Below are positions 8,255 to 8,879 of a DNA stretch of 64,000 nucleotides, piece after piece. A model generated the notes under the pieces. That model did no database searches and had not been told where the DNA came from. It saw only the letters and a list, made by a program, of their open reading frames with translations. Within the stretch, counting starts at the first letter, position 1. Every line of letters begins with the position of its first letter. This DNA comes from Phycisphaerae bacterium. GTDB lineage: Bacteria; Planctomycetota; Phycisphaerae; UBA1845; PWPN01. Both the position numbers and the translations under genes were made by a program. The stretch lies in NCBI GenBank assembly GCA_035384605.1, contig DAOOIV010000006.1, forward strand, positions 9,148-73,147, read 5' to 3'.

Positions 8255-8659
8255 AGGGAGCCGGTTGGCGGTTTCTTGTCGGCAGCGGCCGATCATCAGG
8301 CGGCTCGATCCGTCCATTTCGACTTGCTCGTGCGGCCGGCGGCAGCGCCTGGAGCCGACGATCCGGGATCGTCGTCGCCGGCCAGACTCAGGATCTGAGA
8401 CTCCTGCCGCGACGTCCATATGCGAACTTGACGAGGACGGTCTGGGCTGCATCCGATGAGTGAAGAACGTAATCCTTATTCAACTTCCGACTCGGATCGT
8501 TCGATGAATCTCATCACGGCAAAATGGGGAGGGAGAACACATGCCAATCGATGCGAATGGCACGGGAGCATGGTTCCCCCTCGGATCGACCTGCCCAAAC
8601 TCGCTGACCGGGTCAGAGGACGTTCGGGCAAAAAAAAGATGGATTCGGAAAAAAAGGTG

Positions 8660-8688
8660 TTGACTCCGGACGCAAGGCGCATTAAAAA
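8660..8688 (+). promoter_or_regulatory. sigma70-like promoter candidate (TTGACT-17 nt-TAAAAA) upstream of the Lys-rich micro-ORF
   Basis: TTGACT at 8660..8665, a 17-nt spacer, then TAAAAA at 8683..8688. A8 and A7 tracts sit just upstream (UP-element-like), in a locally AT-richer stretch. Confidence 0.4.
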
Positions 8689-8747
8689 ATCCGTGAATCC
8701 CGTTCGCGTCACACGGGATAGTCAACTCCATGAAAGGAGAGTATGCC

Positions 8748-8813
8748 ATGGCTAAGAAGAAAGCCGCAAAGAAAGCCAAGAAGGCGAAGAAGGCCGCGCG
8801 GAAGAAGAAATAA
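8748..8813 (+). CDS. 21-aa polycationic Lys/Ala micro-protein ([21 protein letters not shown])
   Basis: ATG is preceded by AGGAG (8735..8739) at 8-nt spacing. TAA stop at 8811..8813. Promoter candidate lies 60 nt upstream and a 14-bp hairpin 16 nt downstream. The ORF is too short for the ORF track. Confidence 0.45.
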   Translation: [21 protein letters not shown]

Positions 8814-8828
8814 GTTCGTAGTGGCCGA

Positions 8829-8879
8829 ATGAAACAGGGCGGATTGCCCCATTTGTATCGGGTAGTCCGCCCGTTTCAT
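8829..8879 (+). terminator. stem-loop downstream of the micro-ORF (no U-tract)
   Basis: ATGAAACAGGGCGGA (8829..8843) pairs with TCCGCCCGTTTCAT (8866..8879), giving 14 bp with one bulged A and a 22-nt loop. Confidence 0.35.

Follow-up and report, generated by a model that had tools for sequence, protein, structure and literature searches.

A conserved Lys/Ala-rich micro-gene with a family-specific 5' hairpin in Phycisphaerae-type planctomycetes encodes a candidate polyanion-binding micro-protein

Here we describe a micro-gene of 21 codons in a stretch of 64,000 nucleotides (nt) from a Phycisphaerae bacterium of the Planctomycetota (contig DAOOIV010000006.1 of assembly GCA_035384605.1, positions 9,148 to 73,147); the whole stretch is called the window, and all positions refer to it. 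On comparative grounds, the interval 8630-8879 is a transcription unit of about 185 nt, complete and with a single gene, that would encode a free-standing cationic micro-protein of 21 amino acids, and comparison among loci establishes the micro-gene as one of a conserved, independently organised family with a family-specific 5' hairpin in Phycisphaerae-type planctomycetes. That the poly-Lys/Ala micro-gene is real and translated is, from its pattern of conservation, very probable; that its peptide functions as a binder of polyanions on the nucleoid, RNA, or polyphosphate has, judging by analogy, about an even chance. To the combined statement, a real micro-gene with a polyanion-binding function, we give a probability of roughly 0.6. 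Annotation hardly ever includes genes of 17-21 codons, and most databases filter out low-complexity peptides. The present case is unusually clean, because evidence for the gene comes from a search that never used the open reading frame (ORF). Its promoter suggests that the peptide is abundant; if so, this phylum, in which the organisation of the nucleoid is under debate, would have in it a major cellular polycation that tryptic proteomics cannot see.

The micro-gene sits in a gap of 854 bp between two convergent genes, one for a zinc-ribbon protein on the plus strand and one for an AI-2E family transporter on the minus strand. An initial annotation, made from the letters of the window, had noted here an AT-richer pocket with an ORF for a poly-Lys/Ala peptide, a Shine-Dalgarno (SD) sequence, a TTGACT-17-TAAAAA promoter candidate, and a downstream hairpin, and had taken them together as an independent transcription unit. 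On re-reading, the 21-residue ORF with its 13 Lys/Arg is correct, the SD sequence and the promoter hexamers lie where that annotation put them, and the G+C content at the micro-gene is about 0.52 against about 0.60 in the flanks. Three features go beyond it, namely an invariant hairpin at the 5' end of the messenger RNA (mRNA), A-tracts that resemble an UP element, and a conserved place downstream of an mgtC-family gene. An in-frame ATG further upstream, at 8730, would give a version of 27 amino acids. This ATG is not conserved, being ACG in two relatives (L002 and L019; the loci of relatives are designated in this way throughout) and absent in a third (L008), and the product would therefore be the 21-residue peptide. 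On both strands of the window and the fetched loci (311,622 bases), no ATG-initiated ORF of 12-95 amino acids with at least 35% Lys was found besides the micro-gene and its homologues.

One set of relatives was obtained by synteny. A search with the zinc-ribbon protein led to one genome locus (L001), in a metagenome-assembled genome (MAG) of an uncultured planctomycete, where the protein is 64% identical. In the intergenic alignment with this locus, only window positions 8629-8886 are conserved, at about 95%, and the remainder is at the random level. Homologues of the AI-2E transporter were drawn from MAGs labelled Phycisphaerae or Planctomycetota; their identities to the window, by tblastn, are 87% (L002), 78% (L006), 72% (L003 and L005), 64% (L013 and L014), and 63% (L008). 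In all of these AI-2E-derived loci, the micro-ORF is found on the strand opposite to the transporter, right beyond the 3' end of the transporter gene, amid sequence that cannot be aligned. Because a different gene stands on the other side of the micro-gene in L005 and L006, the unit is not simply part of one conserved block. At AI-2E loci of 48-62% identity (L007, L009, L010, L011, and L037-L040), the micro-gene was not found at that position. Across the relatives that carry it, the promoter hexamers, the SD spacing, the start codon, the reading frame, and a terminator hairpin are kept, with the spacer, linker, and flanks diverged, and the idea of a self-contained transcription unit is borne out to that extent.

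The other set of relatives came from a scan of metagenomes with the hairpin of the 5' untranslated region, in which the pattern TCCCGTNNGCGTCACNCGGGAT was used alone and the ORF was not used at all. The hairpin was chosen as the query because, of all parts of the unit, it is the one best conserved from the window type to the L008 type. The scan returned 21 metagenome loci, 18 of which have the full architecture of promoter, SD sequence, Lys-rich ORF, and terminator; the other three (L027, L029, and L032) lack promoter and ORF alike and seem to be chance matches. In the 18 loci, the elements follow one another in the same order: A-tracts, TTGAC[TG], a 17-nt spacer of unrelated sequence, a -10 box of the form TAnnnT, the hairpin, a linker of variable sequence, the SD sequence, and the start context ATG GCT AAG, mostly with GCC before it. 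The encoded peptides begin with MAK[KR], end in most lineages with RKKK, and are 17, 19, 21, 25, 27, 33, 34, 39, 44, 64, or 78 amino acids long, with 48-65% Lys/Arg; the remaining residues are Ala, Val, Thr, Gly, and Pro. AKKKV and KKKAT pentamers occur in L008, L018, L016 (64 amino acids), and L036 (78 amino acids) and make up the long members, whereas the window peptide is built of AKK and AAKK units. Only the N-terminal MAK and two internal Lys are invariant columns of the alignment. The hairpin pattern has a single copy in the window, even when three mismatches are allowed; it has no match in viral contigs, and the unit is therefore not phage-borne. The hairpin followed by ATGGCTAAG would serve as a simple genome signature for the family.

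The promoter assignment rests on what is fixed and what is free. Among the 23 distinct upstream regions, the hexamers and their spacing are fixed (the -10 box being TAnnnT or TAAAAA) and the spacer sequence is free, which, on this comparison, is the pattern of a sigma-70-type promoter. The spacer measures 17 nt; the script placed it at 18 nt for two loci and mis-anchored L016, which was read by eye. A generic promoter scan does not list TTGACT-17-TAAAAA, because it demands T at position 6 of the -10 box, so that the support comes from the comparison across loci. Just upstream of the -35 hexamer, two A-runs of at least four residues are present in most lineages, with varying bases between them; a single run is found in L016, L017, L018, L021, L033, and L036. 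These tracts would correspond to the proximal and distal subsites of an UP element, to judge by the resemblance to Escherichia coli rrnB P1. Transcription is predicted to start near 8695-8696, about 7 nt past the -10 box, and the UP-like A-tracts, the near-consensus -35 hexamer, and the A-rich start of the coding region together would provide high expression.

The hairpin starts 8-12 nt past the -10 box in most lineages (18 nt in L018/L035), and for this reason it should lie at the 5' end of the mRNA in most lineages, in the window 1-2 nt from the predicted start. It is also present in the loci derived by synteny, which were selected without regard to it; in L008, only two of its 23 positions differ, and the adjoining linker has diverged. 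It is predicted in all folds except one. The search pattern leaves one stem position free, at the closing pair, and the real matches have only A or G there, giving U-A or U.G, which fits RNA pairing better than a DNA palindrome, although this is modest evidence. In Rfam, the whole window gave no match at the gathering threshold, and the interval 8600-8900 gave, at E-values (E) up to 10, only a chance match on the minus strand (15 bits against a threshold of 43). On these comparisons, the invariant 5' hairpin appears to be a compact RNA element with no Rfam counterpart.

The predicted transcript (8695-8882) folds as the 5' hairpin, an SD hairpin, and the terminator, with z = -5.65. In the second of these, the SD sequence would pair with an upstream CUCC; this pairing has a mean probability of 0.78, as compared with 0.58 when the linkers are shuffled, and 9 of 21 leaders stand at 0.05 or below, so that the folding model is no more than suggestive of SD sequestration. 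The downstream hairpin is present at the place where the initial annotation had described 14 bp, but it is longer, with a core of 13 bp (8837-8849 with 8860-8872), a bulged A, and 7 more pairs. In the clade of the window, pairing covers 93% of its alignment cells and falls to 36-48% if the partner columns are shifted, and a G.U pair at columns 18/35, which would be a C/A mismatch on the other strand, is invariant; its covariation there is not significant (134 of 500 shuffles are no worse), the changes being too few. The GC-rich hairpins that other lineages have at this place differ from it and mostly carry clear U-tracts. A very short ORF with a run of Lys codons and a hairpin after it could also be read as a leader peptide that senses the supply of lysine or Lys-tRNA and attenuates the downstream gene. 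The gene order already contradicts this, as the gene after the hairpin is convergent and not co-directional; the downstream neighbours, moreover, differ by lineage (AI-2E, znuA, and dtd), in most lineages the hairpin is an ordinary intrinsic terminator, and an alternative pairing that would form an anti-terminator was not seen. We regard a leader peptide as scarcely credible.

The evidence for translation comes from the way the ORF varies. The peptide is identical in the window and in five relatives (L001, L002, L003, L005, and L019); L006 and L020 have an in-frame deletion of 12 nt, which makes the L006 version 17 amino acids long, and L008, L013, and L014 have a 33-residue version ending in [KR]K. 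The family comprises 20 distinct ORF sequences, for about 15 distinct peptides of 17-78 amino acids, all in frame, and the frame set by the conserved ATG survives differences in length of as much as 171 nt. The initial annotation had named an A/G-rich tract whose length varies out of frame as the observation that would speak against a gene; the length does vary, from 17 to 78 codons, and stays in frame throughout. The conservation with synonymous substitutions that it had looked to relatives for is also seen, since close pairs of equal length differ by one or two synonymous third-position codons and at most one Lys/Arg exchange, in a sample that is small (about 7 synonymous changes against 2 Lys/Arg). 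All four Ala codons (GCA, GCC, GCG, and GCT) and six Arg codons are used in the family, and the conserved Arg before the C-terminal KKK is CGG, CGC, CGT, or CGA, depending on the lineage. The distance from the SD sequence to the ATG is 7-9 nt in 21 of 21 distinct leaders. In-frame insertions and deletions, an excess of synonymous changes, and a fixed SD-start geometry, as expected of a protein-coding gene, are thus all found. Because the tract is T-poor and its +1 frame is also mostly open, an open frame alone is weak evidence, and the case for coding is carried by the substitution pattern and the start geometry.

It should be mentioned that the claim that standard gene callers are blind to such ORFs holds for the 17-21-residue versions, which are missed in L002, L003, and L006, but fails for versions of 31-33 amino acids, which are called in L005, L008, and L013. 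The source assemblies carry these calls at 4587-4682 (L005), 4277-4378 (L008), and 3777-3878 (L013); L014 has no call for its 33-residue version.

For such a peptide, the initial annotation had suggested an association with the nucleoid or the ribosome, or an action on membranes. Searches of Pfam, NCBIfam, and PHROGs with the window peptide and the longer family members gave nothing at or near any cut-off, no chain matched in a sequence search of the PDB at E up to 10, and none of 10 family peptides is present, by exact look-up, in a collection of 15 billion proteins. A profile search of a database of 5.8 billion proteins returned only unrelated proteins with Lys/Ala-rich N-termini, at E >= 0.5, and our literature searches found no description of this poly-lysine micro-protein family. 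The closest known proteins are chlamydial Hc2, which is nearest in its logic, and BpH1 of Bordetella; the Lys/Ala-rich tails of these and of histone H1 bind and neutralise polyanions. Chlamydia Hc2, a binder of both DNA and RNA, is a series of Lys-rich pentamers whose other residues are Ala, Val, Thr, and Pro, and its length changes in frame (PMC2848022). The family described here shares with Hc2 and BpH1 the Lys-rich short repeats with Ala, Val, Thr, or Pro, consecutive Lys-rich pentamers included, and the gain and loss of repeats in frame. It differs in that Hc2 is 165-237 amino acids long and has conserved non-repetitive flanks, whereas the proteins here are 17-78 amino acids long and consist of the repeat tract alone, and in that Hc2 pentamers carry two positive charges, whereas the family has three per pentamer or two per triplet, at about 60% Lys/Arg. 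We know of no Hc2-type gene with this 5' hairpin. The Chlamydiae and the Planctomycetota both belong to the Planctomycetes-Verrucomicrobia-Chlamydiae (PVC) group.

Low-complexity Lys/Ala sequences that bind polyanions are also known in AlgP (KPAA repeats), in the tail of actinobacterial HupB, and in the H1-like proteins of Burkholderiales; in these cases they are tails on folded domains or belong to proteins of 200-350 amino acids, whereas here the tract is the entire protein. AlgP is reported to associate with polyphosphate granules (PMC9239181). Taken together, these comparisons point to the family as an H1-like bacterial polycation cut down to a free micro-peptide that has an RNA element of its own, and as one that was previously undescribed. 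The peptide would act by charge, as a mobile polycation that neutralises chromosomal DNA, RNA, or polyphosphate, and the tolerance of lengths from 17 to 78 amino acids, with Ala, Val, Thr, Gly, or Pro at the spacer positions, fits such non-specific electrostatic binding.

Two side observations concern Lys-rich tracts on folded proteins. In the same genome, an HU-like gene (48914-49225, about 103 amino acids from MAKLTKSATAKTL) ends in GKKPPKKKK, so that the KKPPKKKK tail mentioned in the initial annotation is indeed there, as a Lys tail on a folded nucleoid protein. Among the proteins from the profile search, P0122 (116 amino acids) is a SWIB-domain protein (PF02201) whose N-terminal tract, MAKKKATKKAAKKATKKAATKK, is very similar to the micro-protein, and the Lys/Ala module would therefore also occur fused to folded domains of the chromatin type.

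Size and charge also place the peptide near the tiny ribosomal proteins bS22, bL37, bTHX, and eL41, which have 24-33 amino acids, are rich in Lys/Arg, are encoded by independent small genes, and were found late, having long been unannotated. The micro-protein might accordingly be a lineage-specific counterpart of these, bound to the ribosome, with the hairpin as an autoregulatory leader. A-tracts with a near-consensus -35 hexamer are seen in promoters of the translation apparatus, and a gene-specific leader is typical of ribosomal-protein operons; every hairpin match that is not a chance one precedes the micro-gene. The known proteins, however, fill fixed pockets of ribosomal RNA (rRNA) and are constant in length and sequence, whereas the family varies 4.6-fold in length, from 17 to 78 amino acids, with expansion of repeats. 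Furthermore, no ribosomal model of NCBIfam or Pfam was matched (E up to 1-10), the PDB chains that gave no match include those of ribosome structures, and specific recognition of a hairpin is hardly to be expected of a low-complexity peptide. The variable length and the pentamer repeats speak for non-specific binding of polyanions more than for a fixed ribosomal site, and we consider the latter unlikely, if worth keeping in view. A loose association with the ribosome may still be compatible with the variable length.

Strong positive charge, together with a position often convergent with an AI-2E transporter gene, might also suggest an exported, membrane-active polycation of the antimicrobial type, possibly leaving the cell by that transporter. 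The peptide has no signal peptide and no hydrophobic face, its residues being Lys, Arg, Ala, Val, Thr, and Gly only; the linkage to the transporter is lost in L017, L024, L030, and L033; and no genes for immunity, processing, or ABC export are among the called neighbours, for which no PADLOC scan was made. Export is thus very improbable.

Several points weigh against a translated polycation that binds polyanions, and they should be set out together. The case is entirely comparative as regards transcription, translation, and binding. A peptide of 17-21 amino acids is far shorter than any characterised nucleoid protein, and it is without the non-repetitive domains of Hc1, Hc2, and BpH1. The only matches to any model, both of them for H1-like proteins, Pfam PF07382 HC2 (9.3 bits against a cut-off of 40, E = 1.5) and NCBIfam NF038053 hist_H1_lk_Burk of Burkholderiales (8.9 bits against 80, E = 1.7), were obtained with the 78-residue member and lie far under the cut-offs, reflecting composition only; for HC2, the window peptide and all other members gave no match. 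The U-tract of the terminator is weak (GUUUCAU) in the clade of the window. Within that clade, moreover, the third positions of codons for identical residues are identical in 19 of 20 cases in the micro-ORF, whereas the AI-2E gene reaches 46-63% (P from 5e-6 to 1e-3). This extra synonymous conservation implies some constraint on the RNA itself, which a model of protein function only leaves unexplained. Finally, the strict conservation of the hairpin-loop sequence goes beyond what the role of a generic stabiliser explains.

The constraint on the RNA deserves a closer look. Within the window clade, the leader and the 3' region are as rigid as the micro-ORF. Since four Ala codons occur, each conserved in place, codon bias alone is insufficient to explain 19/20 synonymous identity. 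Derived states are common to the loci that are closest by their neighbouring gene (for example, L001 and L002), and the rigidity suggests vertical descent with strong purifying selection acting on the RNA, and not recent transfer. The functional product might then be the RNA, as a small regulatory or dual-function molecule, with the ORF incidental or secondary; the near-invariance of the window-clade transcript at synonymous sites, its strong predicted structure, and the fact that the untranslated hairpin is the most conserved part of the family would all be in line with this. Over the family as a whole, however, the RNA of the ORF diverges freely, whereas the frame, the start context, the SD spacing, the Lys/Arg content, and, in most lineages, the C-terminal RKKK are kept; shifts in ORF length of up to 171 nt are not expected of a base-pairing RNA, and no Rfam family was matched. 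An RNA product with an incidental ORF is therefore distinctly improbable.

With a translated polycation as the preferred reading, the hairpin would have the part of protecting a short mRNA from decay that depends on the 5' end. The 5' hairpin of ompA, an mRNA stabiliser, is a stem-loop of similar position, a few nucleotides at most from the 5' end of the mRNA, which in the present case is probably highly expressed. Generic 5' stabilisers such as that of ompA require pairing and not a particular sequence. The family hairpin differs in that both its stem and its loop are invariant, while the ORFs and terminators have diverged completely. Because the sequence and not just the pairing is invariant, the hairpin is probably also a specific site of regulatory recognition.

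The genomic neighbourhood is the remaining source of evidence. An mgtC-family gene is found by tblastn upstream of the micro-gene, on the same strand, in most loci with sufficient flank. The AI-2E transporter gene, the anchor of the synteny analysis, is convergent with the micro-gene in L001-L003, L005, L006, L008, L013, L014, L019, L025, L026, L028, and L034-L036; in L017 and L022, an operon for a znuA-type transporter takes its place downstream. In L033, the micro-gene stands in a different context. By eye, the micro-gene of L024 (about 4533-5628) and L030 (about 1100-1935) is convergent with a gene like that for D-aminoacyl-tRNA deacylase (MRA.VQRV...), which is followed by a gene resembling a WYL/HTH-type regulator, and neither mgtC nor AI-2E adjoins.

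In Salmonella, MgtC takes part in the response to low Mg2+, and polyamines can stand in for Mg2+ as counter-ions. The micro-protein might thus be an Mg2+-sparing polycation coupled to the mgtC-family gene, neutralising rRNA, nucleic acids, or polyphosphate when Mg2+ is low. The order of the two genes is retained even where znuA lies downstream (L017 and L022), and in the window it is retained despite an inserted gene of 375 codons. Against such a coupling, the micro-gene is served by a promoter of its own, Rfam showed no Mg2+-sensing element, L024, L030, and L033 carry the micro-gene with no mgtC within several kb, and a shared gene order may be mere inheritance, the link being an inference; we regard it as improbable. 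A broader version, which we rate as rather unlikely, would combine a protamine-like poly-lysine peptide, a promoter of the rRNA type, and a dose set through the hairpin by a factor that recognises it, so that the peptide would be a tunable, genetically encoded counter-ion replacing Mg2+ or polyamines on the nucleoid, the ribosomes, or polyphosphate, whence the adjacency to mgtC. If this were true, the unit would represent a new class of bacterial charge-homeostasis effector and a new cis-regulatory RNA element.

Table 1. Features in and around the micro-gene, in window coordinates
Feature	Position	Strand	Remarks
mgtC-family gene, upstream neighbour	6387..6902	+	Found by tblastn; Pfam MgtC assigned to the homologues in L006, L008, and L013
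Gene for 375-residue zinc-ribbon protein	7127-8254	+	Separates mgtC from the micro-gene in L001-L003 and the window
Conserved upstream blocks	TTCAACTTCCG 8479-8489; GTTCGATGAATCTCA 8499-8513; ATCGATGCG 8547-8555		Alignment of the window, L019, L001, and L002
ORF of 40 codons, not a gene	8541..8663	+	ATG 8541; TGA 8661-8663, inside TTGACT
Two A-tracts, UP-element-like	8630-8637 and 8649-8655 (8630..8655)	+	Just 5' of the -35 hexamer
-35 hexamer TTGACT	8660-8665	+	TTGAC[TG] in 23/23 distinct upstream regions
-10 hexamer TAAAAA	8683-8688	+	17 nt from the -35 hexamer; TATTAA, TAATTT, TACATT, TAAGTT, TAGATT, and others in other lineages
5' hairpin, 23 nt	8697..8719	+	Stem AUCCCGU 8697-8703 with ACGGGAU 8713-8719; loop UCGCGUCAC
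Predicted CUCC/SD pairing	8726..8741	+	CUCC 8726-8729 with GGAG 8736-8739; fold prediction
SD core GGAG	8736-8739	+	Within AAAGGAGAG (8733-8741), 8 nt 5' of ATG 8748
Micro-gene, 21 codons and TAA	8748..8813	+	ATG 8748-8750; TAA 8811-8813; 13 Lys/Arg in 21 amino acids
Terminator-type hairpin	8829..8879	+	Stems of 7 bp and 13 bp with a bulged A between; loop of 10 nt
AI-2E family transporter gene, convergent downstream neighbour	9109..10368	-	Synteny anchor; Pfam PF01594, E = 5.8e-40

The initial annotation had also proposed a second small gene upstream, a 40-codon ORF whose ATG is preceded by GGGAGGGAG with a spacing of 5 nt. It exists as a sequence and does end inside the -35 box; as a gene it was rejected, since the closest relatives (L019, L001, and L002) have GTG for the ATG, have lost GGGAGGGAG, and carry 2-nt insertions or deletions, and the region is unalignable in L003, L005, and L006. 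Three short blocks, 100-180 nt before the promoter and surrounded by diverged sequence, are shared by the window, L019, L001, and L002 (Table 1). Two of them, GTTCGATGAATCTCA and ATCGATGCG, have TCGATG in common, and the first of these two is partly kept in L005 and L006. By their conservation, the blocks within 8479-8555 may be a binding site for a regulator of the micro-gene.

The zinc-ribbon gene that separates mgtC from the micro-gene in the window is absent from that place in L006, L008, and L019, the last with an AI-2E fragment of about 95% identity. In L002 and L003, a second zinc-ribbon gene stands beside the first. From this distribution, the gene looks like a lineage-variable insertion or an expansion of paralogues.

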